DNA of 64,000 nucleotides. It comes from Escherichia coli. GTDB lineage: Bacteria; Pseudomonadota; Gammaproteobacteria; Enterobacterales; Enterobacteriaceae. A program made the translations under genes and the position numbers. A model generated the notes under the pieces. The model searched no databases and had not been told where the DNA came from. It saw nothing but the letters and a program-made list of their open reading frames with translations. This document shows, one piece after another, positions 13,309 to 64,000 of the stretch. Location: NCBI RefSeq assembly GCF_044324785.1, contig NZ_CP172129.1, one strand, 5' to 3'. Positions within the stretch are counted from its first letter, which is position 1. Every line of letters begins with the position of its first letter.

Positions 13309-14128
13309 TTGGAAAACGGATTTCCCCACGTCAAGAGAATTGATTTGAACGAGTGGCTTCGCTACAAACAGCTCCCGTTTGTGTGTGAAAAACCCCTCTC
13401 AACAGATCTCAACTCTGCACGATATCTACAGGAGATTGCTCCAAAAGGCAGTATCGTGTCTTTTAACTACCGATATAACCCCGTCATCGACATGATAATG
13501 CGTCTGAGAAATGAGAAGAAATTAGGTGAACTGCATTTCTTCTCAGCAGAATTTAATAAAAATTCTGCACTGACCCGCCATCACCTGACCTGGCGAGACT
13601 CCGCACAACAGAGCAAAAGCAGCGGTGCTCTGGGCGATCTATCCTGTCATCTGCTTGATTTATTTTGTTTTATAGGGGAAAGCCCGGTAGTGGTTCATGG
13701 GATCAAAACGGTAAAGGGGACACGTGGGTACAAAATCAGATGGTCAGGTTGAAGTGGATGATAACGGCTATGTAATGGGCAGTTCAGAAAAGGGAGCTTA
13801 TTTCAGAGTTCATGCCAGTAAATCGGAAACAGATCATAATTTGGGACTGCATATACAGCTTGTATTTGAAAATGGTGAAATCAGATATTCAACCCACCAT
13901 GAAAATCGCCTGCTCCTGATTCTATTTAATGATACGAATACGGAAACAATTGGCTTCGACGCTCTGAAACGCTTGCCTGATCCACCACGGGAGCTTCCAT
14001 TCTGGTCTGATTCGTTTATTCATCTTCATGACGACTGGTGTGCTCTTATTAAATATGGTCACTCGTCTCCTAAGCTGGCGGACCTGTCATCCGGCCTTCA
14101 TATACAGGAAATAATTGAGGCATTCTGA
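13309..14128 (+). pseudogene. Gfo/Idh/MocA-type oxidoreductase remnant (N-terminally truncated and split over two frames near 13724-13752)
   Basis: EKP motif (FVCEKPLS) near the start of the first ORF; C-terminal domain continues in a different frame. Confidence 0.5.
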
Positions 14129-14399
14129 TATGGATACCATTCTTTTAACCGGGCTGTTTGCTGCATTTTTCACAACGTTTGCGTTCGCTCCCCAGAGCAT
14201 AAAAACTATCAGGACACGCAATACCGAAGGTATCTCCGTTGTTATGTATATCATGTTCCTGACAGGTGTAATCTCATGGATAGCGTATGGCATTATGCGA
14301 TCTGATTTTGCCGTACTGATCGCCAATATTGTCACACTGTTTCTGGCTGCACCAGTGCTTGTAATAACACTTATCAACCGCAGGAAAAAACACGTATGA
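14115..14399 (+). CDS. SemiSWEET/PQ-loop small membrane transporter (start probably at 14130)
   Basis: About 90 aa with three hydrophobic helices and a PQ motif (FAFAPQSIKTIR). Confidence 0.55.
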   Translation: MRHSDMDTILLTGLFAAFFTTFAFAPQSIKTIRTRNTEGISVVMYIMFLTGVISWIAYGIMRSDFAVLIANIVTLFLAAPVLVITLINRRKKHV

Positions 14400-14662
14400 A
14401 TATTGCAATCATCGGCGCGGGTCCTGCCGGCATCATTTCTGCCCGTAATGCGATTAAAGCAGGTCACTCCGTGGTTCTGTTTGAGAAGAATACCCGAATT
14501 GGGGGGATCTGGAACCCCTGGAGTGGTGGCGCTTACCGTAATGCCTGTATGCAGAACTCTCGTTATACATTTCATTATACTGGCTTTCCCCCTGGCGATA
14601 TCGATGAACGAAGTTGGATGCAAATGTCAGATCGTGTGCGCCTGTTAGGGCGCGGCTGGTAA
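14396..14662 (+). pseudogene. N-terminal stub (88 aa) of a flavin-dependent monooxygenase
   Basis: Dinucleotide-binding motif IAIIGAGPAGI, then a premature stop; full-length homologues are several-fold longer. Confidence 0.5.
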
Positions 14663-47749: not shown

Positions 47750-48093
47750 TCTGGGACCACGGTCCCAGTTGTATTGTCGGTCTGATAATCAGTCTGGGAC
47801 CACGGTCCCACTCATATTGTCGGTCTGATAATCAGTCTGGGACCACGGTCCCACTCATATTGTTGGTCTGCTAATCAGTCTGGGACCACGGTCCCACTCA
47901 TATTGTCGGTCTGCTAATCAGTCTGGGACCACGGTCCCACTCATATTGTTGGTCTGATTATCGGTCTGGGACCACGGTCCCACTCATATTGTTAGTCTGA
48001 TAATCAGTCTGGGACCGCGGTCCCACTCGTATTGTTGGTCTGCTAATCAGTCTGGGACCACGGTCTCACTTGTATTGTCGATCTGATTATCAG
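47750..48093. repeat. sopC: sopC centromere: 8 tandem 43-bp repeats, each with the inverted repeat tgggaccacggtccca
   Basis: Counted directly; repeats abut with no spacers (not CRISPR). Confidence 0.9.
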
Positions 48094-48699
48094 CGTGAGA
48101 CTACGATTCCATTAATGCCTGCCAGTGAGTGTGTGGAACATATCTTGGCCAGTGGCTTGGTCTGTGATGTGCTGCGTATACCGGGTGAACCGCCCCGCCG
48201 CTTGTTTGACCGCTATATTCTGCGGGAGTTTTCTTGGAGGCACGGGATGAAATCCGCAGCATGGCGGATGCCCTGGCAAAAATCCGGAAATGATGACGAT
48301 GGCGGGGAAAATCCCCGCCTTTTTCCTGCCGGTCCCCGGACAGAGCACAAAGGAAGTCGCCGCCGGCTCCGCTTTACCCGGCCATGCGGAGCATGGCCTT
48401 GTGGGGGTTCAGTTATGTGGACGTCGAGTCGTGTGCGGGCTGTGCCGTGCCTCCATCTTAGCCGGGCTGGCGTTGATGCAAGCAACTGTCTTAATGGGAG
48501 GCGGTTATCTGAAAAAAGTACGGGATAATATTATGGAATCGCCCATCTCAAGCAAAAAACTGACTCGCTTCGATACTACGCTGACAGGCTGTTTTGAGCG
48601 AGATATCTCTCGTGTCGGGCATCGACATTTTAAATGATTCTAAATAATATGAGCAGGGTCAGTCTTATTAAAGATTAAAACACCGGATAACAAGTTTTA

Positions 48700-49281
48700 T
48701 TGATTATGGATGAAGAGAAAACTCGTGCTGAAGTGGCACACATAGAATTTATTTCATATGGTACGTCTCGAATTTTTGATAGGCGTATGAGATCCTTAGA
48801 CTGGAAGCGTAAGGTTGTCACCTTCCTTGGGGTCTTTGTTCCACTGATGATAGGTTGTGCAGTTTTATCATTCGGACTTGAAGCTCCATTTCTGCCGCTT
48901 TGCATCACAATTGCCGGTGTGGCAAGTATCATGCAATTGGGGTTCTCGCTGTGGTCTTTGGTTTCCGGATGGGATCGCTCATATAGTGATTGCATGGCTT
49001 CCGTTAAGGAAAATACAGCCATTTATAACCTAGCTGGTAGTGTTCGCAAGAAAATAGGTAAGCTTGACGAAGCCAAATTGGAAATTTTGATAGACGATTT
49101 GACGGAAAAATTTGAGCGAAGGGAGCAGGAAGACTTAACTTTGTGTGTGAGTGATAAAGAACTTCGTTATGCAAACCGTATGTCCTGTTTCTACTTCAAA
49201 AAAAAATGCCATATTTGTAATGTCGTTCCCCTAACTTTGAAACCGGGAAAATGTGTTTGTGATGGTTGTGGGAAATTTTAA
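48700..49281 (+). CDS. Hypothetical protein (193 aa) with two central hydrophobic helices and a C-terminal Cys cluster (CHIC...CVCDGC)
   Basis: Hydrophobic stretches VVTFLGVFVPLMIGCAVLSF and LPLCITIAGVASIMQLGFSLWSLV; region is AT-richer than its flanks. Confidence 0.5.
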   Translation: MIMDEEKTRAEVAHIEFISYGTSRIFDRRMRSLDWKRKVVTFLGVFVPLMIGCAVLSFGLEAPFLPLCITIAGVASIMQLGFSLWSLVSGWDRSYSDCMASVKENTAIYNLAGSVRKKIGKLDEAKLEILIDDLTEKFERREQEDLTLCVSDKELRYANRMSCFYFKKKCHICNVVPLTLKPGKCVCDGCGKF

Positions 49282-49293
49282 CAAGGAGAACAT

Positions 49294-49506
49294 ATGAGTA
49301 GTGCAAAAATTCTTAACGCTTACTTCGAGGCTTCTGAAGAAGATCGAAAGGAGTTCCTACGGGTTCTTAGTCATTTTTATAAGGATAACCGAAGAGTACC
49401 TCTGCAAGAGGGCATGGAGAGCTTTGCCGTCAATGAAAGCATCCGTAAATCGCAGTCAATTAACTTTGCCCCTATGCAAGGTGGGTGTCCACTCTGCGGC
49501 AAGTAA
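49294..49506 (+). CDS. Hypothetical small protein (70 aa) ending in CPLCGK
   Basis: 13 bp downstream of the previous ORF, same strand, with a ribosome-binding site (aaggag); likely co-transcribed. Confidence 0.4.
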   Translation: MSSAKILNAYFEASEEDRKEFLRVLSHFYKDNRRVPLQEGMESFAVNESIRKSQSINFAPMQGGCPLCGK

Positions 49507-49766
49507 CGACCAAAGCCGCTTGACTAGCGGCTTGATAGATTTCTTTATATTGTAACTAGCATCTTTACATCCTGTTAAAAAAGTGGCTATTGCCCGCTAT
49601 CTTGCAATTCTCCGTATTTGGTACAAAAACAGCCGAAAGCTGCACTATCAGCAGCTATGAGCAGCGGCCCCACTGACATCGCGGATGCTTTGTCCGTGGG
49701 AGGGCGGATCACAACAGGCCTGCGGGATAAGTTGTTCTTTCTGTCATTATGTAAAATGACCGGCAG

Positions 49767-50768
<1,002 letters not shown>

Positions 50769-51139
50769 TCAATCAACTGTACGGATTTGTGATGAGTGAC
50801 TCAGCTCATGCGCGGGACGCTTGCATGCGGGCTTAATACCCTCGGGTTCGCACGTGCTGCATGAGCTTTGCCAGACCTACAGATTCAGTTTATGCCATCT
50901 TCAAGATATAAGGATACGCTTCGCCGCTGCGGTCACCCGGTCCCTCCTTCCCGTCTGCCGTGATTTTCCGGTCGTTTACCCGCTCAGATTTCGCGGTCTC
51001 ACCCTCCAACTCCCGCCAGCCGTGTGTGTCAGGCTGCGGCTTCCCTTGCGCCCTTTGCATCCCCGCCTTATCGCCCGGCTTTTATGGAGGCACGGCACAG
51101 CCCGGTGTCGCGGAATATGTGAACAACGGAGGAAATCCC

Positions 51140-51565
51140 ATGCAGTATGCGAAACCTGTCACTCTGAATGTTGAAGAGTGCGACCGTCTGTCTTTTCTGC
51201 CTTACCTGTTTGGCAACGATTTTCTGTATGCCGAAGCATATGTGTACGCGCTGGCGCAAAAAATGATGCCGGAATATCAGGGAGGCTTCTGGCACTTCAT
51301 CCGCCTGCCGGACGGTGGCGGTTACATGATGCCGGATGGCGACCGTTTTCATCTGGTTAACGGTGAAAACTGGTTTGACCGCACGGTCAGTGCCGATGCC
51401 GCAGGCATCATTCTGACTTCCCTTGTGATTAACCGCCAGTTGTGGCTGTACCACGACAGCGGTAACGCAGGGCTGACACACCTGTACCGGATGCGTGATG
51501 CGCAGTTGTGGAGCCACATCGAATTTCACCCCGAATGTAACGCGATTTACGCGGCGCTGGACTGA
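51140..51565 (+). CDS. klcA: ArdB/KlcA-family antirestriction protein (141 aa)
   Basis: [16 protein letters not shown] region resembles the KlcA/ArdB core; leading-region position. Confidence 0.65.
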
Positions 51566-51654
51566 TTAACGGACGGGGCGGCAATGCCGCCCCTGTAAAG
51601 GAGACGAGAACATGTACTGTTAAAGAAATTATCCGCGATGTACTGGATACAGAC

Positions 51655-52026
51655 GTGCCGGACAGTGAATGCGTTTTTGCCGTGGTGCTGACCCGTGGGA
51701 ATGTGCGCCATATGGCTCAGGACTGGAACCTGTCAGACGATGAGCTGGAAACCGTCATGCAGCGGCTGGACGATGCTTTTGTATATGGCGCATGTGACAG
51801 AGTTGTTTCCGATATTGTCAATGAACTGATGGAGGAAAAGCGCGTAAACCGCCTTGTAACAGTCCCTGCGGTGCTGCTGGAAAAAGTGATGGTGATGGCT
51901 GGTAGTGAAATTTATCGCCTCCATGCTGTCGGGAGCGAGAACGGGGGCGACGGTGACGCATTTGTCAGGGAAGAACGTGAGATTATGCGGGTGATGCGTC
52001 AGGCGCTGGACGGGGAGAACGGGTAA
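51655..52026 (+). CDS. Hypothetical leading-region protein (123 aa)
   Basis: ORF with a stop/start overlap (TAATG) with the next ORF. Confidence 0.4.
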   Translation: MPDSECVFAVVLTRGNVRHMAQDWNLSDDELETVMQRLDDAFVYGACDRVVSDIVNELMEEKRVNRLVTVPAVLLEKVMVMAGSEIYRLHAVGSENGGDGDAFVREEREIMRVMRQALDGENG

Positions 52027-52208
52027 TGAATATCAGCACGGAAACCCGCGAAATTCTGCGTAATTACAAAACCGTGATTAATGCGCGGCGTCGTGAGATG
52101 GGGCAGAAACCGCTCACCACCGCGCAGATTGTTGATGAAATCTGCGATTTTGTGACGAATCAGCAGGCGGTTTTCCTCGGTGGTCACTATATCCTTCAGG
52201 GCAGCTGA
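52026..52208 (+). CDS. Hypothetical leading-region protein (60 aa)
   Basis: Translationally coupled small ORF. Confidence 0.3.
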   Translation: MNISTETREILRNYKTVINARRREMGQKPLTTAQIVDEICDFVTNQQAVFLGGHYILQGS

Positions 52209-52442
52209 AACAGGTGATACAGGGCAGGCGGTGGAGGCCGCCTGTCAGCCCGCGCGAACCCCCCTGGCAGGCTGACGCCTGCCGGAAGGGAAGCGGGCCA
52301 CGCTGACGCGTCGCCCGTTACCCTTCCCGTTAGTGATGTGTCCGGAATGTTTTTTCTGATGTTATTTTTCTGTGGTTACCGTGTTTGTTATTGTTCTTCT
52401 TCTTTTTCCTCTTCCTCTTCTTTCCGTTCCTCTCCTGTTTAT

Positions 52443-52972
52443 GGCTTTTCCGGGCGTCCCCCTGGCGGGGCGGGCTGTCGTGAACGGAGCCAGCGGAGCT
52501 GTCTCCGCCCTGGCGGGCTTCCATCCCTGACGCGAAACCATGGCTTGCAGCGACCGTTCCGGTCGCGCCGCCTCTGTCGCGCCGTGGCCTGCGCTCCCGG
52601 CATCCCGGCAAAAGGCGCCGGAATGTAAGGAGCAACGCCGTTTCGCAAACCGCGCTTCACGTCGTTGCGGCGGGTCCCTGCTCATTGCCTGCCAAGTGCC
52701 ACACACCCGTATGAGTCCCTGTCGCCGGGGGCTGAGACAGCCACAACCTGCCGCACTGACTGTCCAGGGTAAATGAACAGCCCACAAAATTTTTTACCCA
52801 GAACCCGGTAAAAAATTTTGCGTTCTGCCCAGGACAGGTGCGTCAGGCCGTGGCAGTGATGCCCCTTGCGGCGAAGGTTCTCAAACGGGTGAAGTTCATA
52901 CCACAGGGAATACAGCAGCAGGTTCCCGCGAAACGTCAAAACCGCGGCTCCCGAAACTCAACGGGTGATGTT
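52443..52972 (+). repeat. Structured ~530-bp repeat, copy A (Frpo/ssi-like single-strand promoter element)
   Basis: Near-identical to 55701-56228 and 61091-61618; internal palindromes such as caaaattttttaccc...gggtaaaaaattttg. Confidence 0.6.
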
Positions 52973-53201
52973 CTTTAAAAATCAGGATTTATTTCAGGCT
53001 CCGGCAATACGCATTTATTTGTTCTGTCAGTCATCCGGCTGGCAGGTAATGAGAACGCAGGAACAGAAGGAGGAAAACACCGGAAAGCGTCAGATGCAGA
53101 TATGAAAAAAGCAGGTCAGGGACCTGCTTAATCCACGCCGTAGAAATCGCCGCAATCGATTTTCACGGCTTCACTAACCTGTGTCATAAGGAGTTTCATT
53201 T

Positions 53202-53432
53202 ATGACAGTAAGTATTGTTTCACCTTCCGCAGCGGCTGTAAAGCCCCGCCGTCATCCCCGTTTCAGACGCGAAGACATCCCCGCGCCGGAAATTGACCCC
53301 GTGCTGAAAGCATTCGGGCGACACATAGCCCGGAGTTTTCACCGGGGACGTGGTGTACACATCCCCGCCATGAAAAACACGGCTTTCGGGCAGGTGCTCC
53401 GCACACTTGAACTGAAACGCGCTTTTAACTGA
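53202..53432 (+). CDS. Hypothetical small basic protein (76 aa)
   Basis: ORF downstream of repeat copy A with an upstream ribosome-binding site (aaggag). Confidence 0.35.
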   Translation: MTVSIVSPSAAAVKPRRHPRFRREDIPAPEIDPVLKAFGRHIARSFHRGRGVHIPAMKNTAFGQVLRTLELKRAFN

Positions 53433-53483
53433 TGAGGTGAGCCGCCCCGCGAGGGGCGGCAACAGACGGAAGGAGAACATTTT

Positions 53484-54845
53484 ATGACATTAGCAGCAAT
53501 CACCATGACCGCCCCAGAAGCCGCCAGCCCTGTGCAGATGTACCGCGCGACCTACTCACCGGATGACAACAAACTGCGCCTGTATGCTGCGTCACGTCTT
53601 GACCCGGAGACGTATAAAAAAGTGCATGATGCCGGTTTTCGCTGGGCACCAAAACAGGCGCTGTTTGTGGCTCCAGCCTGGACACCGGGCCGGGAAGACG
53701 TGCTCCTCTCACTTGCCGGAGAGATTGAGGATGAAGACAGCACGCTCGCTGAACGTCAGGAAGCACGGGCGGAGCGGTTTACCGGATACAGCGGAAAGCG
53801 GGCCAGTGAATCCGCACAGGCACTTGATGAAGTGGAAAGACTGGCCGCGATGATCCCGCCCGGTCAGCCCATTCTTGTGGGGCATCACAGCGAACGCCGC
53901 GCCCGTCGTGATGCGCAGCGTATTGAAAACGGCATGAAACGTGCCGTGATGCTCGTTGAACGTGCGGAATACTGGGAAGAGCGGGCGCGGTCGGCACTGC
54001 TTCACGCGAAGTATAAAGAACGTCCGGACGTTCGCTGGCGTCGTATCAAAAAAATCGAAGCTGATTTGCGCAAGGCTGAAAAGACCATCGCGCAGTCGCA
54101 GAAATATCTGACGATATGGCGGGCTGAATCGCTGGATCTGAATATGGCAAAACTCATCAGTAGTCATGACCGTATCAGTGCCTGTTTCCCGCTGGATACG
54201 TATCCGCGCCCGGCAGAAAAAAGCCAGTATGAAGGAAGTCGATCGTTATGGTCGGCCCTGGATGATGACATCATCACCACGGAGCAGGCCCGCGAAATTG
54301 CGATCCGCTGTCATAAACGGCAGATTCAGCATCAGCAACGCTGGGTTAACCACTATCAGAACCGCCTGATCTATGAGCGTGCCATGCTGGACGAAAGCGG
54401 CGGCGTGGTTACCCGGACACAGGATTTTGAGCCGGGCGGACAGGTTTTCAGCCGGGGCGAGTGGCTGACCATCATCCGCGTGAACAAAAGCAACGGGACG
54501 GTGAGTTCAGTCACAACGCCGAATTACAGTTTTCTCGGGTACAGTGGCACGATGAAAGTGACGCCCGATCGCATTACGGACTACAAAGCACCATCGGCAG
54601 AAGAGGCTGCCGTCGCCAGTCAGGCCGCTAAGCGTCCGCCTGTTGTCAACTATCCGGGAGAAGGTTTCCGGGAAATGACAAAGGCACAGTGGGCTGCCCT
54701 GCCCCGGGACTGTAAGGCCGTGCGCAGTGTGGCAGAGGCAGAAGACCACGGGGCATATCGTTACCGCCGCACAATGGACAATAATTTCCGCCTGGTGAAT
54801 GTGTATATCACCGACATGAAGATTACGGAAATCCCACAGAAATAA
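53484..54845 (+). CDS. Conserved leading-region protein of unknown function (453 aa)
   Basis: Long ORF with ribosome-binding site ggagaa; no catalytic motif recognised. Confidence 0.55.
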   Translation: MTLAAITMTAPEAASPVQMYRATYSPDDNKLRLYAASRLDPETYKKVHDAGFRWAPKQALFVAPAWTPGREDVLLSLAGEIEDEDSTLAERQEARAERFTGYSGKRASESAQALDEVERLAAMIPPGQPILVGHHSERRARRDAQRIENGMKRAVMLVERAEYWEERARSALLHAKYKERPDVRWRRIKKIEADLRKAEKTIAQSQKYLTIWRAESLDLNMAKLISSHDRISACFPLDTYPRPAEKSQYEGSRSLWSALDDDIITTEQAREIAIRCHKRQIQHQQRWVNHYQNRLIYERAMLDESGGVVTRTQDFEPGGQVFSRGEWLTIIRVNKSNGTVSSVTTPNYSFLGYSGTMKVTPDRITDYKAPSAEEAAVASQAAKRPPVVNYPGEGFREMTKAQWAALPRDCKAVRSVAEAEDHGAYRYRRTMDNNFRLVNVYITDMKITEIPQK

Positions 54846-54892
54846 GGTATATCCTCCCGGGAAAATCCCCGGGGGATGACGGAGATAATGAC

Positions 54893-55456
54893 ATGTACAG
54901 TCAGTTAAGAGAACGTATCCGGCTGATGCGCGCAAGGCTGGATAACGCCGCGCCGGTTGCTGAAATCCGGGCTGAATCTCAGCTTTTTGTGACTCCTGCC
55001 CCGGTCTGTGATCGCCTGGTGACGCTGGCGGGGATCAGCAACCGTGATCACATTCTGGAACCCTCTGCCGGCACCGGGGCCATACTGCGGGCGATTAGGG
55101 ATACCGCGCCGGTAGCCATGTGTGATGCGGTGGAAATCAACAGCGGGCTGGTCCGGTATCTGCGGGAAAATTTTAACGGTGTCAGGGTTCAGTGTGGCGA
55201 CTTCATGGAATGGCAGCCGGTGCAGTATTACAGCCGGGTTATCATGAATCCGCCGTTCAGCCACGGGCAGGATATCCGGCATATCCTGCGGGCCTTTTCC
55301 CTGTTGCGTCCGGGTGGCGTGCTGGTCGCCGTCTGTCTCAACGGGCCACGCCAGCAGGAGAAGCTGTTACCGTTTTCTGACGTCCGCGAGGAGCTGCCGC
55401 GCGGCACATTTGCTTATACCGATGTCCCGACGATGATTATTCGTCTGCGTGCCTGA
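54893..55456 (+). CDS. Orphan DNA N6-adenine methyltransferase (187 aa)
   Basis: SAM-binding EPSAGTGAI and catalytic NPPF motifs. Confidence 0.75.
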   Translation: MYSQLRERIRLMRARLDNAAPVAEIRAESQLFVTPAPVCDRLVTLAGISNRDHILEPSAGTGAILRAIRDTAPVAMCDAVEINSGLVRYLRENFNGVRVQCGDFMEWQPVQYYSRVIMNPPFSHGQDIRHILRAFSLLRPGGVLVAVCLNGPRQQEKLLPFSDVREELPRGTFAYTDVPTMIIRLRA

Positions 55457-55700
55457 AGACTCCGGGCAGGCGGGAGGATAAATGCTCGTCTGCCCGCGCC
55501 GGGAAAAGACCGCGCGCCGGTGGCGCTGAAAGGGGCCGCGCTCACGCGCCGCCCCTTTCATTACGCGGAAATTCTGCTGTGGGCTTCTGTCTTTTCAGAT
55601 CTGTCATTTGTCTGTTACTGATGATGTTCCTGCTACTGCTACTGTTTTTCTTTTTTCTGCTGCTCTGATTACTGTCTGTCTTGTTCTTCTTCTGCCTGTG

Positions 55701-56228
55701 CCTTTTCCGGGCGTCCCCCTGGCGGGGCGGGCTGTCGTGAACGGAGCCAGCGGAGCTGTCTCCGCCCTGGCGGGCTTCCATCCCTGACGCAAAACCCCTG
55801 GCTTGCAGCGACTGTTCCGGTCGCGCGCCTCTGTCGCGCCGTGGCCTGCGCTCCTGGCATCCCGGCAAAAGGCCGCCGGGATGTAAGGCGCAACGCCGTT
55901 TCGCAAACCGCGCTTCACGTCGTTGCGGCGGGTCCCTGCCCGTTGTTATGTCCGGTGCCATTCACCTGTTTAAGCCCCTGTCGCCGGGGGCAAAGACAGC
56001 CACAACCGTCTCCGCCAGTCCAGGGGTGAAATGCACATCCCGCAAAACTTTTTGCCCAAAAGCAGGCAAAAACTTTTGCGGTCTGCCCCCGGACAGTCGT
56101 TTCCTGCCGTGGCAGTGATGCCCCTTGCGGCGAAGGTTTTCAAAAAGGTGATGGTGAATACCGGAGGGAACAAAAGGCAGGTCCCCGCAAAACGTCAAAA
56201 CCGCGGCTCCCGAAACTCAAAAGATGAT
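55701..56228 (+). repeat. Structured ~530-bp repeat, copy B (Frpo/ssi-like), upstream of ssb
   Basis: See copy A. Confidence 0.6.
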
Positions 56229-56261
56229 GGGGCTGAAAACATCAACAGAAGGAGACACATC

Positions 56262-57090
<829 letters not shown>

Positions 57091-57153
57091 GAGAGGTGCC
57101 GGACGGGAATGCGTCCGGCAGACATACAACCATCCCGGTCAAAGGAGAAATAT

Positions 57154-59112
57154 ATGTCGGTTACAGAGTCTAAGACAAAAACGGAGCGTAAATCCAGCCG
57201 TAAACCGTCAAAAGAGCAGGAGACTGCCCTGTCTGCCCTGCTGGCGCAGACGGCGGAAGTGAGCGTGCCGCTGGCCTCACTGATTAAATCACCACTGAAT
57301 GTGCGCACGGTGCCGTATTCTGCGGAGTCTGTCAGCGAACTGGCGGAGTCCATTAAGGGCGTTGGCCTGTTGCAGAATCTGGTCGTGCATACCCTGCCTG
57401 GTGACCGTTACGGTGTCGCCGCAGGTGGTCGCCGACTGGCTGCACTCAACATGCTGGCAGAGCGTGGCATCATTCCGGCTGACTGGCCTGTCCGTGTGAA
57501 GGTCATTCCGCAGGAGCTGGCGACGGCGGCATCAATGACTGAAAACGGTCATCGTCGGGATATGCACCCTGCTGAACAGATTGCCGGATTCCGCGCAATG
57601 GCGCAGGAAGGCAAAACACCTGCACAAATCGGTGATTTGCTGGGCTATTCACCCCGCTATGTCCAGCGAATGCTGAAACTGGCTGACCTTGCGCCTGTCA
57701 TCCTCGATGCGCTGGCAGAAGACCGCATCACTACCGAACACTGTCAGGCGCTGGCGCTGGAGAACGACACCGCGCGTCAGGTACAGGTGTTTGAAGCCGC
57801 CTGTCAGTCGGGATGGGGCGGAAAACCGGATGTGCGGGTTATCCGCAATCTGATTACGGAAAGTGAAGTGGCGGTGGCGGGGAACAGTAAATTCCGCTTC
57901 GTGGGGGCTGATGCTTTCTCACCTGACGAACTGCGTACTGATTTGTTCAGCGATGACGGGGACGGTTATGTCGACCGCGTGGCGCTCGATGCTGCCCTGC
58001 TGGAAAAACTCCAGGCTGTCGCTGAACACCTTCGGGAAGCCGAAGGCTGGGAATGGTGCGCCGGACGCATGGAGCCTGTCGGTGAGTGCCGTGAGGATGC
58101 CGGAACATACCGCTGTTTGCCGGAGCCGGACGCGGTGCTGACGGAGGCGGAAGAAGAACGCCTGAACGAACTGATGACGCGTTACGACGCGCTGGAAAAC
58201 CAGTGTGAGGAATCCGACCTGCTGGAAGCAGAAATGAAGCTGATGCGCTGCATGGCGAAGGTCAGAGCGTGGACGCCGGAGATGCGTACCGGAAGCGGTG
58301 TGGTGGTGTCCTGGCGTTACGGTAATGTGTGTGTCCAGCGTGGTGTGCAGTTGCGCAGCGAGGATGACGCGGCTGACGACGCTGACCGCACGGAACAGGT
58401 GCAGGAGAAAGCATCAGTGGAGGAAATCAGTCTGCCACTGCTGACGAAAATGTCTTCCGAACGCACGCTGGCAGTCCAGGCGGCACTCATGCAGCAACCG
58501 GACAAATCCCTGGCACTGCTGGCATGGACGCTCTGCCTGAATGTGTTTGGCAGCGGAGCGTACAGTAAACCAGCACAAATCAGCCTGGAATGTAAACATT
58601 ATTCGCTGACCAGCGATGCGCCGTCAGGGAAGGAAGGTGCCGCGTTCATGGCGATGATGGCAGAAAAAGCCCGTCTTGCGGCCCTGTTACCGGAGGGATG
58701 GTCACGGGACATGACGACGTTCCTGTCACTCAGTCAGGAGGTGCTGTTATCCCTGCTCAGTTTCTGCACCGCGTGCAGCATCCACGGCGTTCAGACCCGC
58801 GAGTGTGGTCACACGTCACGCAGCCCGCTGGACACGCTGGAGAGCGCCATCGGTTTTCACATGCGTGACTGGTGGCAGCCGACAAAAGCAAACTTCTTCG
58901 GACACCTGAAAAAGCCGCAGATTATCGCAGCTCTGAATGATGCCGGACTGTCCGGTGCCGCACGGGATGCAGAGAAGATGAAGAAAGGTGATGCGGCTGA
59001 ACATGCAGAGCACCATATGAAAGACAACCGCTGGGTGCCTGGCTGGATGTGTGCACCACATCCACAGACGGATACCACTGAACGCACCGATAACCTGGCT
59101 GATGCCGCCTGA
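57154..59112 (+). CDS. ParB-like nuclease domain protein of the leading region (652 aa)
   Basis: N-terminal ParB/Srx-like segment (NLVVHTLPGDRYGVAAGGRRLAAL); long acidic C-terminal region. Confidence 0.7.
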   Translation: MSVTESKTKTERKSSRKPSKEQETALSALLAQTAEVSVPLASLIKSPLNVRTVPYSAESVSELAESIKGVGLLQNLVVHTLPGDRYGVAAGGRRLAALNMLAERGIIPADWPVRVKVIPQELATAASMTENGHRRDMHPAEQIAGFRAMAQEGKTPAQIGDLLGYSPRYVQRMLKLADLAPVILDALAEDRITTEHCQALALENDTARQVQVFEAACQSGWGGKPDVRVIRNLITESEVAVAGNSKFRFVGADAFSPDELRTDLFSDDGDGYVDRVALDAALLEKLQAVAEHLREAEGWEWCAGRMEPVGECREDAGTYRCLPEPDAVLTEAEEERLNELMTRYDALENQCEESDLLEAEMKLMRCMAKVRAWTPEMRTGSGVVVSWRYGNVCVQRGVQLRSEDDAADDADRTEQVQEKASVEEISLPLLTKMSSERTLAVQAALMQQPDKSLALLAWTLCLNVFGSGAYSKPAQISLECKHYSLTSDAPSGKEGAAFMAMMAEKARLAALLPEGWSRDMTTFLSLSQEVLLSLLSFCTACSIHGVQTRECGHTSRSPLDTLESAIGFHMRDWWQPTKANFFGHLKKPQIIAALNDAGLSGAARDAEKMKKGDAAEHAEHHMKDNRWVPGWMCAPHPQTDTTERTDNLADAA

Positions 59113-59166
59113 TGAACAACCACACCGCCCCGCCGGAGACGGGGCAGCAGCAAGGGAGATACCGTG

Positions 59167-59601
59167 ATGAAAACTGAACTGACCCTGAATGTATTACAGA
59201 CCATGAACGCACAGGAATATGAAGATATCAGGGCTGCCGGAAGTGATGAACGCCGTGAGCTGACACACGCCGTGATGCGGGAACTGGATGCGCCGGACAA
59301 CTGGACGATGAATGGCGAGTACGGCAGCGAGTTCGGCGGCTTTTTCCCCGTCCAGGTCCGTTTCACGCCTGCCCACGAACGTTTTCACCTGGCGTTATGT
59401 TCACCGGGTGATGTCTCCCAGGTCTGGGTGCTGGTTCTGGTGAATGCCGGTGGTGAGCCGTTTGCGGTGGTTCAGGTACAGCGGCGGTTTGCACCGGAAG
59501 CAGTCAGCCATTCACTGGCACTGGCGGCGTCACTGGATGCGCAGGGGTACAGCGTTAACGACATCATCCATATCCTGATGGCGGAAGGAGGTCAGGTATG
59601 A
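59167..59601 (+). CDS. psiB: Plasmid SOS inhibition protein PsiB (144 aa)
   Basis: [32 protein letters not shown]... matches PsiB as recalled. Confidence 0.9.
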
Positions 59602-60317
59602 ACGCACGTTCACGGGCACTGGTTCCCCTCAGCACAGAGCAACAGGCCGCATGGCGGGCGGTGGCGGAGACGGAAAAACGCCGCCATCAGGGAAACACGC
59701 TGGCGGAATATCCGTATGCGGGAGCATTTTTCCGCTGTCTGAACGGAAGCCGCCGGATTTCGCTGTCTGACCTGCGATTTTTCATGCCGTCCCTGACCGC
59801 AGAAGAACTGCACGGCAACCGTCTTCAGTGGCTGTGTGCCATCGATGTGCTGATTGAAACACAGGGCGAGGTCTGCCTCCTTCCCCTTCCCGGCGATGCA
59901 GCAGAACGCTTGTTCCCGTCGGTGCGGTTTCGTGTCAGGGAACGCAGTCGCCATAAATCCGCGCTGGTCATGCAGAAGTACAGCCGCCAGCAAGCGAGGG
60001 AGGCAGAGCAGAAAGCCCGTGCGTACCAGGTGCTGGTTGCTCAGGCTGAAATCGAACTGGCATTTCATTCACCGGAAACAGTCGGAAGCTGGCATGCACG
60101 CTGGAGTGACCGGGTGGCAGAGCATGACCTGGAACCCCTGTTCTGGCAGTGGGGCGAGCGTTTTCCGTCACTGGCCGGAATGGAACGCTGGCAGTGGCAG
60201 GATATGCCATTCTGGCAGGTTATCGCGGAAGCCAGTCTGGCAGCCAGAGAGGCCGGTCATGCTGTCCGTGAGATGGAGCGGTGGATGGTGCCGAACAAAC
60301 TCCGGGAGGCAGCGTGA
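59598..60317 (+). CDS. psiA: PsiA (239 aa)
   Basis: Overlaps the psiB stop; matches PsiA as recalled. Confidence 0.85.
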
Positions 60318-60450
60318 TGCGGCAATAATCACACGGATTACCCGTGAACTGGTTGAACGACCAGATTATTTTCAGGGAAAGTGAGTGTGGTCAGCGTGCA
60401 GGGATATGAGCTATGATGTGCCCGGCGCTTGAGGCTTTCTGCCTCATGAC

Positions 60451-60750
60451 GTGAAGGTGGTTTGTTACCGTGTTGTGTGGCAGAAGGCAGAAAGCCCCGT
60501 AGTTAATTTTTCATTAACCCACGAGGCCCCCTGTATGTCTGATCAACAACAGTATGGCCTCTTACCGTGCTTAATGCAAGGAGGAGTAAACCATGAAACT
60601 ACCGGGAAACGCCCTTATCTGGTGCGTATTAATCGTGTGCTGCACGTTGTTAATATTCACACTCCTGACCCGGAATCGTCTGTGCGAAGTCCGGCTGAAG
60701 GACGGATACAGGGAGGTTACGGCAAGTTTGGCTTACGAATCCAGCGGTAA
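60451..60750 (+). CDS. mok-like overlapping reading frame of the hok-type locus
   Basis: ORF in a different frame overlapping the toxin gene and ending 4 bp before its stop. Confidence 0.4.
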
Positions 60751-60754
60751 GTAG
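60593..60754 (+). CDS. hok: Hok/Gef-family membrane toxin (53 aa)
   Basis: Self-translated: [53 protein letters not shown]; below the ORF-track size cutoff. Confidence 0.85.
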
Positions 60755-60763
60755 CAACCTGGA

Positions 60764-60785
60764 GGCGGGCGCAGGCCCGCCTTTT
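60764..60785 (+). terminator. Rho-independent terminator after hok (ggcgggc-gcag-gcccgcc-tttt)
   Basis: GC-rich 7-bp stem followed by a T run. Confidence 0.55.
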
Positions 60786-61090
60786 CAGGGCTGATGCTGG
60801 TCTGACTGCACTGAAGCGCCTTTATAAAGGGGCTGCTGGTTCGCCGGTGGCCCCTTTCTCCTTGCTGGCATTGTGCGGGCATGAACAACCAGACTGCCAG
60901 GAAGGCCGTTTCCCTCCGGGAACGGGGATGAACGTGCGCCTGCGGCGCCCGTTCTTTTCCCCCGCCTTCTCTGTTTATGACCTGTCAGAAATCACATCAC
61001 CTTCCCTTTGATTATTCTCTTTTTCCTCCTGTTCTGACTCTGATTACTGCTGCCCTGATTATTGTCTGTTTTGTTGTTCTCCTGCTTATG

Positions 61091-61618
61091 CCTTTTCCGG
61101 GCGTCCCCCTGGCGGGGCGGGCTGTCGTGAACGGAGCCAGCGGAGCTGTCTCCGCCCTGGCGGGCTTCCATCCCTGACGCGAAACCCCGGGCTTGCAGCG
61201 ACCGTTCCGGTCGCGCCGCCTCTGTCGCGCCGTGGCCTGCGCTCCCGGCATCCCGGCAAAAGGCCGCCGGGATGTAAGGGGCAACGCCGTTTCGCAAACC
61301 GCGCTTCACGTCGTTGCGGCGGGTTCCTGCCCGTTGTTGTGTCCGGTGCCATTCACCTGTTTAAGCCCCTGTCGCCGGGAGCTGATACAGCCACAACCTG
61401 CCGCACTGACTGTCCAGGGTAAATGAACAGCCCACAAAATTTTTTACCCAAAACCCGGTAAAAAATTTTGCGTTCTGCCCAGGACAGGTGCGTCAGGCCG
61501 TGGCAGTGATGCCCCTTGCGGCGAAGGTTCTCAAACAGGTGATGGTGAATACCGGAGGGAACAAACGGCAGGTCCCCGCAAAACGTCAAAACCGCGGCTC
61601 CCGAAACTCAACAGATGA
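61091..61618 (+). repeat. Structured ~530-bp repeat, copy C (Frpo/ssi-like)
   Basis: See copy A. Confidence 0.6.
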
Positions 61619-61652
61619 TGGGGGCTGAAAACCAGAGAGAGGAGAAAGCAGG

Positions 61653-61940
61653 ATGAGTACCCGAAATATCCACGTTAACATCGCGTCGTACACGCTTCTT
61701 GTTGCCGGGAAGAAAAAATACACCGGGGAAGAGTGGGACGTCCTGGAATTCAGCAGCCTGACTGAGCTGAAAAAATATCGCAAAAGCCACCCGGAAAAGA
61801 TGGCCTTCAGCTATAGCTATGCGCTCAGCCGGGGTGTGGATACGCAGTTCCGCCATATCAACATTGCGGAAGCCGATCACTTCAAACAGTTCCTGCGTCA
61901 GATTAAGCGTACCGGCCTCGATATCCGGGCTATCTGCTGA
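61653..61940 (+). CDS. Hypothetical leading-region protein (95 aa)
   Basis: ORF directly downstream of repeat copy C. Confidence 0.45.
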   Translation: MSTRNIHVNIASYTLLVAGKKKYTGEEWDVLEFSSLTELKKYRKSHPEKMAFSYSYALSRGVDTQFRHINIAEADHFKQFLRQIKRTGLDIRAIC

Positions 61941-62058
61941 CCGGATGTGATGAATATCCCTCCTGATTGTTGCAATCTTGTTAATGGAGATCGGGAGGGA
62001 TGATATTAAGCGGAAAAATTTTTTATTAAATTTATTCTTTCATAAAGGAGTAGCTGTT

Positions 62059-62880
62059 ATGCGATTAGCTTCCCGTTTTGGTCGGTATAATTCCATCCGC
62101 CGTGAACGTCCTTTAACGGATGATGAATTAATGCAGTTTGTGCCTTCGGTGTTTTCCGGTGATAAACATGAGTCCCGGAGTGAACGTTATACGTATATTC
62201 CAACAATCAATATCATCAATAAGTTACGTGATGAAGGTTTCCAGCCATTCTTTGCCTGTCAGAGTCGGGTTCGTGATTTGGGACGTCGCGAATACAGTAA
62301 ACATATGTTACGTCTTCGCAGGGAAGGGCATATTAACGGGCAGGAAGTTCCTGAAATTATCCTGCTTAATTCACATGATGGTTCATCCAGTTATCAGATG
62401 ATCCCCGGAATTTTTCGTTTTGTCTGCACAAATGGCCTGGTGTGCGGAAATAATTTTGGCGAAATCCGCGTTCCACATAAAGGTGATATTGTCGGGCAGG
62501 TTATCGAGGGAGCGTATGAAGTGCTCGGTGTCTTTGATAAGGTCACTGATAATATGGAGGCGATGAAAGAAATTCATCTTAACAGTGACGAGCAACATTT
62601 ATTTGGCAGAGCTGCACTGATGGTCAGGTATGAAGATGAAAATAAAACGCCGGTGACGCCTGAACAGATAATTACTCCCCGTCGTCGGGAGGATAAACAG
62701 AACGATCTCTGGACAACCTGGCAGCGGGTTCAGGAGAATATGATAAAAGGTGGATTATCGGGGCGAAGTGCCTCCGGGAAAAATACCAGGACAAGAGCCA
62801 TTACAGGTATTGATGGTGATATAAGAATCAACAAAGCATTATGGATGATTGCCGAACAGTTCAGGGAGTGGAAGTCGTGA
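62059..62880 (+). CDS. Leading-region protein, F orf273-like (273 aa from MRLASRF)
   Basis: Length and position next to the lytic transglycosylase gene and oriT; function unknown. Confidence 0.5.
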   Translation: MRLASRFGRYNSIRRERPLTDDELMQFVPSVFSGDKHESRSERYTYIPTINIINKLRDEGFQPFFACQSRVRDLGRREYSKHMLRLRREGHINGQEVPEIILLNSHDGSSSYQMIPGIFRFVCTNGLVCGNNFGEIRVPHKGDIVGQVIEGAYEVLGVFDKVTDNMEAMKEIHLNSDEQHLFGRAALMVRYEDENKTPVTPEQIITPRRREDKQNDLWTTWQRVQENMIKGGLSGRSASGKNTRTRAITGIDGDIRINKALWMIAEQFREWKS

Positions 62881-63175
62881 TAATATAGGTAAAGCCCCGA
62901 AAAATTTTCGGGGCTTTACTTATATTGTCATCCTTCGGCATTGCTATGTCGTCTGATATGCCTCAATTTCATCAACTGGCTTTTCGGTAGTCTGTAAATA
63001 TTGTGCCCGCGAAAAATGGTCTGGCAGGAGGCTACGCAGTTACCGGATATATATAATATGGGTTCCCGCTTTGCGGGGCTTCGGCCAGTCAGCATTATCA
63101 CTCATATGATATTTTTGTGTGTGGCCTTCCATGCCGCTGTCGCGGCATAACCGGTATTTGACAATGTATACAATA

Positions 63176-63685
63176 TTAATTGTTCTGCACACTGTTCATT
63201 TGGGAAAGTGATTTCTTCGTGGTCGGAACCCGGATACCTTTACTGCTTTTTATCCCGGTATAAATCCGGTAAACATCTGATGCGTAGGCAAGACGCCTCT
63301 GGTTCTGGCGTTCGGTTTTCCTGAATCCGGCATTGTATGCACCAACGGCCTCCCAGGTGACGCCCCATTTTTTAAATGCTATTGCCAGATAATAAGCACC
63401 GGTATAAATGTTCATGCAGGGATCTGTTGTCATATGTTCCGGCTTAATTCCGTAGCGGGCCAGTTCGTTAAAATGCTGGGAATCTACCTGCATCAGTCCG
63501 CTGCCATATCCCGTTACCGGATTAATACCGATGGCATTAACCCGGTAACGGGATTCTTGCCATGATATTGCTCTCAGTAAATCAGGATCTATTTTGTAAT
63601 CCCTGCCTGCAAGATCAAAGCAATCAGTGGCCAGACAGATCTCATTTATAAACATCAGGCAGATGGCTAACATCCATTTTTTCAT
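63176..63685 (-). CDS. Lytic transglycosylase (SLT domain), F orf169/gene X-like (169 aa)
   Basis: Signal peptide plus SLT motifs [19 protein letters not shown]. Confidence 0.85.
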
Positions 63686-63719
63686 TTTTCCACCTCTGGT
63701 GACTTTATCCGTAAATAAT

Positions 63720-64000
63720 TTAACTCACTCCACAAAAAGGCTCAACAGGTTGGTGGTTCTCACCACCAAAAGCACCACACCCCACGCAAAAACAAGTTTT
63801 TGCTGATTTTTCTTTATAAATAGAGTGTTATGAAAAATTAGTTTCTCTTACTCTCTTTATGATATTTAAAAAAGCGGTGTCGGCGCGGCTACAACAACGC
63901 GCCGACACCGTTTTGTAGGGGTGGTACTGACTATTTTTATAAAAAACATTATTTTATATTAGGGGGGGCTGCTAGCGGCGCGGTGTGTTTTTTTATAGGA
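63720..64000. other. oriT: F-type origin of transfer (oriT) with nic region
   Basis: Reverse complement of 63750-63790 reads ttgcgtggggtgtggtgcttttggtggtgagaacc (F nic region); inverted repeat gcggtgtcggcgcg...cgcgccgacaccg at 63884-63915. Confidence 0.8.

Follow-up and report, generated by a model that had tools for sequence, protein, structure and literature searches.

Three repeats in the leading region of an Escherichia coli IncF plasmid very probably carry Frpo/ssi-type single-stranded DNA promoters

In class-1 single-stranded DNA (ssDNA) promoters, the -35 and -10 boxes are rebuilt within a stem, with mismatches around -10. The closest described examples are Frpo1 (also called ssiD or ssp1a) and Frpo2 (ssp1b) of the F plasmid, and ssi1-ssi3 of ColIb-P9 (IncI1), which are three dispersed copies, each before a leading-region operon. 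Like the two F elements, ssi1-ssi3 are transcribed from the ssDNA form and give transient (zygotic) induction in transconjugants (PMC9849209; PMC11541004; PMC12672017). When Frpo1 or Frpo2 is deleted, transconjugants lose the early expression of ygeA, ssb and yfjA (PMC9849209), and protective anti-CRISPR expression from an Frpo2 cassette is best on the leading transferred strand (PMC11541004). Class-1 promoters have also been confirmed by RNA-seq and 5' RACE (PMC12672017), and homologues of Frpo are on record for thousands of plasmids. The class 2 (ssp2 or 'Frpo3') and class 3 (ssp3) ssDNA promoters of F and pESBL follow the same logic, with a hairpin of the transferred strand upstream of leading-region anti-defence operons, but they have no sequence similarity to the three repeats described here.

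The window analyzed, a stretch of 64,000 nucleotides (contig NZ_CP172129.1), is the leading region of an IncF plasmid. Repeat search, MAFFT and blastn alike found three direct copies (A, B and C) of a repeat with a core of about 545 bp (Table 1), and no fourth copy was found by blastn in the 64-kb window. An earlier note on this DNA had described three near-identical repeats of about 530 bp. The three repeats were recovered, but near-identity holds only over some 90 nt (52447-52540 in copy A), where the copies are 100% identical in the MAFFT alignment; over the whole repeat, pairwise identity is 92.5% for A-C, 90.7% for B-C and 85.3% for A-B (544-592 bp; E-values 1e-174 to 0). Each copy stands ahead of a block of plus-strand genes that are typical of leading regions; the neighbors include ssb, psiB, psiA, hok/sok and SLT genes. 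The same note had placed a pyrimidine-rich tract before each repeat and a gene within 40-250 bp after it. Tracts of about 105 nt are indeed present, and the distances are about right: the ssb ATG (56262) and the start of the 95-aa ORF (61653) lie 18-33 nt past the end of homology and 45 nt past the hairpin base, and the 76-aa ORF starts 217-232 nt past copy A, with an antisense-RNA gene between. The three repeats are already known biology, whose mechanism was previously tested in F and IncI plasmids.

Table 1. Coordinates of the repeats, their parts and the neighboring features in the window
Feature	Position	Strand	Remarks
Repeat core, copy A	52426-52970		Weaker similarity out to 52362-52985
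Repeat core, copy B	55683-56229		Weaker similarity out to 55619-56244
Repeat core, copy C	61078-61620		Weaker similarity out to 61009-61635
Pyrimidine-rich tract before A	52340-52444	plus	77% pyrimidine, 16% G; purine-rich on the transferred strand
Pyrimidine-rich tract before B	55597-55701	plus	73% pyrimidine
Pyrimidine-rich tract before C	60990-61091	plus	75% pyrimidine, 12% G
Left conserved module, copy A	52445-52639	minus	Common to the three window copies and both F copies
Left conserved module, copy B	55702-55897	minus
Left conserved module, copy C	61092-61288	minus
Frpo-type hairpin, copy A	52640-52957	minus	dG -97.6 kcal/mol, z -10.0, 12.9 kcal/mol below complement
Parts of the copy A hairpin			Loop ~52799-52806; A/T palindrome 52783-52822; conserved unpaired TTCATTTA 52770-52777
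Frpo-type hairpin, copy B	55898-56216	minus	dG -92.1 kcal/mol, z -8.9
Frpo-type hairpin, copy C	61289-61607	minus	dG -99.6 kcal/mol, z -11.4
Gene block after copy A	53202-55456	plus	76-aa ORF 53202-53432; DUF3560 protein 53484-54845; class I SAM methyltransferase 54893-55456
Gene block after copy B	56262-60317	plus	ssb 56262-56894; DUF905/yfjA-like ORF 56830-57090; ParB-like yfjB 57109-59112; psiB 59164-59601; psiA 59598-60317
Gene block after copy C	61653-62880	plus	95-aa ORF (ygeA position); DUF932 protein (ygeB position); pECOS88 and F annotation
15-mer of the F oriT nic region	63769-63783	minus	Exact match

The position and orientation of the repeats agree with those in F. The 15-mer near the end of the window, which in F lies between the SLT gene and traM, is taken here to be the F nic site. 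Its location on the minus strand marks this as the strand that is transferred, which is also the template for all downstream genes. Copies C, B and A are located about 2.2 kb, 7.6 kb and 10.8 kb from nic, respectively. Copy C occupies the position of Frpo1, between hok/sok and the ygeA/ygeB homologues, and copy B that of Frpo2, before the same downstream operon, ssb-yfjA-yfjB-psiB-psiA. In the operon behind copy B, NCBIfam matches were obtained for SSB, ParB, PsiB and PsiA, and ssb is frameshifted at its last codons. The gene block behind copy A is absent from F; its annotation comes from an identical region of pECOS88, and the methyltransferase matches family profiles. A homologue of ssp2 is also present in the window, interrupted by a 2.43-kb insertion.

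Homology to the F element was found in all three copies on the minus strand. With F ssiD/Frpo as query (D90178.1, the sequence in supplementary file 4 of Samuel et al.), blastn gave 96.6% identity over 351 nt to copy B (55884-56232), 87.6% to copy C (61275-61624) and 79.7% to copy A (52626-52959), in matches that span 335-351 nt (E-values 6e-78 to 9e-165). The F Frpo2 cassette that Samuel et al. used matches copy C at 98% identity. The hairpin itself corresponds only to the right-hand ~318 nt of each 530-545-bp repeat. On the transferred strand, 318-319 nt of each copy fold into a hairpin well below shuffled sequences (z from -8.9 to -11.4) and more stable by 11-13 kcal/mol than that of the complement. 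The transferred strand has 8-9 G-T pairs, against 2-5 in the complement; copies B and C share the ~318-nt hairpin with Frpo1. The long internal palindromes claimed earlier are present at the apex, but they are imperfect (CAAAATTTTTTACC / GGTAAAAAATTTTG in copy A, with the variant CAAAAGTTTTTGCC / GGCAAAAAGTTTTG in copy B). The fold is also conserved among eight homologues, namely the three window copies, the two F copies, one sequence from Serratia and two from insect metagenomes. Paired cells make up 94.4% in this set and 38-49% with slid partners; 12 pairs are altered on both sides, against 2-5 in controls; and the covariation score is 0.169, against 0.03-0.06 in controls, a value reached by none of 500 shuffles. 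Thus, the Frpo/ssi-type reading of the earlier note, and the folding and F comparison that it had proposed as checks, hold up well. From homology, strand, location, fold and covariation, it is very likely that each repeat carries a class-1 ssDNA promoter of the Frpo/ssi type.

Alternatively, the repeats could encode proteins or belong to coding mRNAs, and their internal ORFs could be real genes. Several ORFs of 78-141 aa do overlap each copy, and a hypothetical protein is annotated at this place in at least one record. However, seven single-base indels between the copies shift the frames, a frame open in one copy has stop codons in the others, none of ten ORFs inside the repeats matches an NCBIfam family, and most annotated records have no feature under the repeat. 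It is extremely improbable that these ORFs are genes, and they were rightly suspected to be artefacts. RNA families give no other assignment: in Rfam (E <= 1, positions 48000-64000), no family covers the repeats, and the search gave nothing but AS-pc01, sok and three chance hits below threshold.

The copies are mosaics. Their apex is of two types, distributed differently in the window and in F: the ssiD-type apex sits here in the ssb-proximal copy B, not in the ygeA-proximal copy, so that the apex cassettes are swapped relative to F. F Frpo2 is itself a hybrid, whose left flank, 3' arm and apex resemble copy A and whose lower 5' arm and right flank resemble copy B. By sequence comparison, this is what would be left by a crossover between A and B that deleted the 3.26-kb block kept in this window, and a similar hybrid repeat was found in an IncI plasmid after a loss of 9.7 kb (PMC3817090). 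Such mosaicism would be expected if the repeats served mainly as substrates for recombination, or were functionless remnants of cassette exchange. This explanation is very unlikely, since compensatory substitutions maintain the pairing of the hairpin, the fold of the transferred strand is favored over that of its complement, and the F copies are experimentally functional. Taken together, these three points make recombination look like a side effect of repetition. Like the window copies, ssi1-ssi3 of ColIb-P9 have a palindromic, A/T-rich apex, a CCCTGGAC / GTCCGGGG stem and, in the 3' arm, a bulge of 8-10 unpaired nt. Alignment, at 76-93%, is limited to about 80-120 nt surrounding the apex and to 29 nt within the left module, and the lower stems are unrelated in sequence.

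Candidate promoter boxes in the repeats are faint. No convincing -35/-10 hexamers were found within the repeats in a strict scan, and a weight-matrix scan gave only weak candidates (at most 7.2 bits) at three positionally conserved sites: TTGACG-N17-19 at the base, TTGAGA-N17-CATCAC at a conserved bubble, and TTGTGG-N17-GACAGT beside the A/T apex. In a pattern-level scan of the plus strand, neither the repeats nor the sequences that follow them showed a sigma-70 consensus facing the genes. The literature on F and ColIb-P9 is the source for promoter activity, transient expression and priming, which would operate here by analogy; for copy A, the copy most diverged from the characterized element, it is homology by itself that suggests promoter activity.

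On the model from F, the minus strand would enter the recipient with its 5' end first from nic (~63.78 kb), so the copies would arrive in the order C, B, A. While the complementary strand is still lacking, the ~318 nt of each copy would fold on itself into a long imperfect hairpin, offering a duplex promoter to the host sigma-70 RNA polymerase, with the template arm continuing into the downstream genes. The ygeA/ygeB homologues would be read off the incoming strand from copy C; ssb, yfjA, yfjB, psiB and psiA from copy B; and the genes for the 76-aa ORF, the DUF3560 protein and the methyltransferase from copy A. The same transcripts could prime synthesis of the complementary strand. Once the DNA had become double-stranded, the hairpin would be gone and expression would stop.

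Priming might instead be the main role of the repeats, as ssi sites for complementary-strand synthesis, with gene expression being secondary. Indeed, ssiD was originally isolated as a priming signal, and a homologue of ssiE, the second priming signal of F, was found by blastn at 62993-63181. Priming by the transcript in vitro is attributed to Masai and Arai (1997) in a paper that cites them (PMC9849209), and early strand conversion downstream of ssp1a and ssp1b is sensitive to rifampicin, which supports priming in vivo (bioRxiv 10.64898/2026.01.09.698686). This possibility carries real weight, though we hold it to be less than an even chance. It is compatible with the promoter model, since the transcript made by RNA polymerase itself serves as primer; each copy lies directly upstream of an operon, in the sole orientation that allows its expression; and early protein production is abolished by the Frpo deletions (PMC9849209).

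The promoter model leaves about 195 bp of each repeat, together with the pyrimidine tract, unaccounted for. These ~195 bp form a left module that lies outside the minimal 328-nt Frpo/ssiD element, and it was found in more than 5000 plasmid records, as were the sequences of the repeats. A 25-nt motif of the module was also found in species-representative genomes, on four short contigs, most of which are probably mis-binned enterobacterial plasmid DNA. It is conceivable that the module and the tract are a separate element, acting either as a terminator or insulator at the end of the upstream operon or as a barrier that slows the approach of complementary-strand synthesis to the promoter hairpin. 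The module is kept in all window and F copies in spite of its place outside the minimal element, and parts of it flank the diverged hairpins of Salmonella and ColIb-P9. The tract is C/T-rich and G-poor, which we consider similar to a Rho-loading site, and a level of 78% pyrimidine over 100 nt is reached in the window only by the tracts before A and C. In addition, ssp2, a different ssDNA promoter of F, is a replication roadblock (bioRxiv 10.64898/2026.01.09.698686). However, the module folds weakly (z -2.0 as transferred-strand DNA and -0.3 as plus-strand RNA), no intrinsic terminator was found by motif scan, and gene conversion alone could account for the identity among the copies. The ideas that the module is unusually structured or serves as a terminator were accordingly dropped, and so was the idea that it is more conserved than the hairpin, the identity distributions of the two across plasmids being similar. 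A separate element is therefore a tentative possibility, somewhat unlikely. It is a little more doubtful still that the functional unit is about 650 bp, larger than the 328-nt Frpo, with the module and the tract as working parts. If it were, the unit might insulate successive ssDNA-driven operons, or slow complementary-strand synthesis and thereby prolong the single-stranded state of the promoter.

As to the Frpo/ssi-type promoters themselves, correct recognition of these elements removes spurious ORF calls, sets the starts of leading-region operons and flags genes that are likely to act early in establishment. In this plasmid, such likely genes include the uncharacterized block behind copy A, which encodes the 76-aa ORF, the DUF3560 protein and the methyltransferase. 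More broadly, Frpo-type hairpins explain how SOS inhibitors, SSB and anti-defence proteins are expressed from resistance and virulence plasmids within minutes of entry, before the second strand is made.

The three direct repeats described in the earlier note, each standing ahead of a plus-strand gene block, were recovered by repeat detection, MAFFT and blastn (copies A, B and C in the table). Their pairwise identity is 92.5% for A-C, 90.7% for B-C and 85.3% for A-B (E-values 1e-174 to 0), and a block of ~90 nt (52447-52540 in A) is invariant across all of them; no fourth copy was found within the 64-kb window. The A/T palindrome quoted in that note lies at 52783-52822 and is imperfect. About 105 nt ahead of each copy are 73-77% pyrimidine, and in the 64 kb a level of 78% over 100 nt is reached only by the tracts before A and C. 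The first downstream genes start at 53202, 56262 and 61653 after A, B and C, respectively.

The note had assigned these repeats to the Frpo/ssi class of single-stranded-DNA promoters, proposing comparison with F Frpo and folding of the transferred strand as checks, and both checks support the assignment. With D90178.1 (supplementary file 4 of Samuel et al., 2024) as the reference for F ssiD/Frpo, ssiD matches all copies on the minus strand at 79.7-96.6%, and the transferred strand folds into a long stable hairpin in all three. The segment 61367-61632 of copy C is also 98% identical to the functional Frpo2-acrIIA4 cassette (Samuel et al., 2024). In place and sequence, copies B and C correspond to F Frpo2 and Frpo1, respectively, and copy A adds a third class-1 copy, of a type found in thousands of plasmids; from its homology and structure, it would be predicted to be active. 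The repeats are a known element correctly recognised, not a new one. Frpo was reported as an ssDNA promoter and source of primers in 1997, and three ssi homologues in ColIb-P9 were reported in 1999. A later catalogue holds 13,089 Frpo homologues across 6,006 conjugative elements, and anti-CRISPR protection from an Frpo cassette depends on position and strand (PMC11541004). Classes 1, 2 and 3 of ssDNA promoters have been defined by RNA-seq and 5' RACE (PMC12672017), and priming in vivo has support in F (bioRxiv 10.64898/2026.01.09.698686).

Features of the repeats, their candidate promoter elements and the insertion in ssp2
Feature	Position	Strand	Details
Repeat core A	52426-52970		repeat detection, MAFFT, blastn
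Repeat core B	55683-56229		repeat detection, MAFFT, blastn
Repeat core C	61078-61620		repeat detection, MAFFT, blastn
Left module A	52445-52639		~195 bp
Left module B	55702-55897		~195 bp
Left module C	61092-61288		~195 bp
F ssiD/Frpo match, copy A	52626-52959	minus	79.7%
F ssiD/Frpo match, copy B	55884-56232	minus	96.6% over 351 nt
F ssiD/Frpo match, copy C	61275-61624	minus	87.6%
Hairpin A	52640-52957	minus	DNA fold; -97.6 kcal/mol, z -10.0
Hairpin B	55898-56216	minus	DNA fold; -92.1 kcal/mol, z -8.9
Hairpin C	61289-61607	minus	DNA fold; -99.6 kcal/mol, z -11.4
Unpaired TTCATTTA, copy A	52770-52777
Candidate 1, 5' arm near stem base			TTGACG-N17-19-T-rich; weak, weight matrix
Candidate 2, 5' arm, -10 at conserved bubble			TTGAGA-N17/18-CATCAC (TAAACC in some homologues); weak, weight matrix
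Candidate 3, 3' arm just below A/T tract			TTGTGG/TTGCGG-N17-GACAGT/TGGACT; weak, weight matrix
F Frpo2 region compared with A and B	F plasmid 14030-14630
ssp2 insertion: CxxCx11CxxC 'mobilome' ORF	48700-49281
ssp2 insertion: 70-aa ORF
ssp2 insertion: IS110-family (ISEc32-like) transposase gene	49767-50738	minus

The repeat region is 100% identical to that of many IncF (MOBF/MPF_F) plasmids, such as pECOS88 and p1658/97. Genes of leading-region type (ssb, a ParB-like gene, psiB, psiA, hok/sok, DUF905 and DUF932 genes) lie on the plus strand, and an SLT transglycosylase gene lies on the minus strand. The 15-mer GGGGTGTGGTGCTTT, which we take to be the F nic sequence, consistent with its position in F between the SLT gene and traM, matches the window exactly in one place, 63769-63783, on the minus strand. 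This makes the minus strand the one that is transferred, starting from a 5' end near 63.78 kb, and this strand serves as template for the plus-strand leading-region genes. Copy C enters first (~2.2 kb from nic), B next (~7.6 kb) and A last (~10.8 kb). The minus strand also carries, at 62993-63181, a homologue 91% identical to F ssiE, which is another single-strand initiation signal; the DUF932 and SLT genes lie on either side of it.

Folded as DNA, each minus-strand copy forms one long imperfect hairpin, with z-scores computed against dinucleotide shuffles. These hairpins are 11-13 kcal/mol more stable than their own complements because on the plus strand C-A mismatches replace 8-9 G-T pairs. 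An alignment of eight homologues, made up of A, B and C, the two copies of F, a Serratia sequence and two insect-metagenome sequences, gives a consensus hairpin of 87 pairs. In this hairpin 94.4% of cells are paired, a share that falls to 38-49% with partners slid by 1-3 columns. Twelve pairs are changed on both sides (2-5 in the slid versions), and the covariation score of 0.169 (0.03-0.06 slid) was reached by none of 500 shuffles. Coming from only eight related sequences, this covariation is supportive rather than definitive of a conserved hairpin, and it is in line with the energy asymmetry. Alignment of the repeats with the ColIb-P9 ssi sequences is confined to the apex region (76-80% over 81-118 nt) and to 29 nt of the left module, the repeat part outside the hairpin. 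The window and ColIb-P9 hairpins share an A/T-rich palindromic apex, a 3'-arm bulge of 8-10 unpaired nt (TTCATTTA, TGCATTTCA, GTATATCTT or similar), a CCCTGGAC/GTCCGGGG helix and, lower in the stem, a small bubble.

A strict consensus scan found no sigma-70 promoter on either strand within the repeats, nor on the plus strand from the repeats to their genes, which fits an element that is silent as dsDNA. A weight-matrix scan of the transferred strand gave three weak candidates at conserved positions, from which plus-sense RNA would be made only when the strand is folded. Candidate 3, whose spacer includes the conserved bulge, falls in the part that is conserved from F to ColIb-P9 and is kept in the functional Samuel et al. 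cassette; in our reading of that cassette, candidates 1 and 2 would lose their pairing partners.

The hairpin covers only ~318 nt of each repeat. The left module matches it in conservation, both in the window and in F, and in PLSDB the two are about equally widespread and about equally conserved. The module has small hairpins, and its fold is unexceptional (z -2.0 as transferred-strand DNA, -0.3 as plus-strand RNA). Sub-blocks of the module are also found after diverged hairpins of Salmonella, an insect metagenome and ColIb-P9. The ORFs predicted inside the repeats had been considered artefacts, and this view holds: seven single-base indels separate the copies within the core, frames open in copy A meet stop codons or a frame shift in B and C, and none of 10 such ORFs compared with NCBIfam has a match. 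Most annotated records show no feature under the repeat. The 287-aa ORF at 56031-56894 is ssb with an upstream extension into copy B; its true start codon, preceded by GGAG, is the ATG at 56262.

Several neighbouring loci were also noted. The plasmid ssb (56262-56894) carries a one-base deletion after ~56790, nine bases ahead of the F stop codon, which changes GATATCCCG to GATA-CCCG and gives the product a 32-aa extension in place of the C-terminal ...DDIPF tip. The deletion may truly inactivate the gene, or it may be a sequencing error. Plasmid pECOS88 shares the region, and its gene table, which leaves out pseudogenes, has no ssb CDS. The F class-2 hairpin (ssp2/'Frpo3'), which lies upstream of an ArdB/KlcA-type antirestriction gene (51140-51565), is interrupted in the window at 48441-50915: collinearity with F ends at ~48482 and restarts at ~50910, with a 2.43-kb insertion between. 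Just ahead of the antirestriction gene, the transferred strand has lost its fold (z +2.3), and the promoter and replication roadblock reported for F ssp2 are probably lost. An Rfam AS-pc01 antisense RNA (53106-53207, minus strand; 105 bits against a family threshold of 79) overlaps the start of the 76-aa ORF; it has sigma-70-like promoters of its own, and an intrinsic terminator at 53129-53109. Because it is read from the complementary strand, it could be produced only after conversion to dsDNA, and therefore, we speculate, it might help to switch off the copy-A operon. The plus strand of the B-C interval holds an Rfam sok/hok-type toxin-antitoxin RNA (60423-60595). Couturier et al. proposed that the hok/sok locus guards the B-C interval against loss by inter-repeat recombination; the A-B interval, the one absent from F, has no such locus.

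The copies are mosaic. Of two apex sequence types, A, C and F Frpo2 have type I, and B and F Frpo1/ssiD have type II. By segment-wise identity, F Frpo2 resembles A along the left flank, 3' arm and apex (37-40 of 40 positions) and B along the lower 5' arm and right flank (39-40 of 40). The lower stem arms of this hybrid therefore differ in parental type, and their pairing is poorer. Only two copies are present in F, which is without the block of the 76-aa ORF, DUF3560 and methyltransferase genes; an A-by-B crossover deleting this 3.26-kb block would yield the F Frpo2 pattern exactly. In an IncI plasmid, a loss of 9.7 kb is marked by a similar hybrid repeat (PMC3817090). The best-matching 5000 plasmid records hold 13,914 matches, ~2.8 each, so that among them three copies per plasmid look like the usual state. 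The hybrid suggests that F is a deletion derivative, which lost the block by recombination between two repeats.
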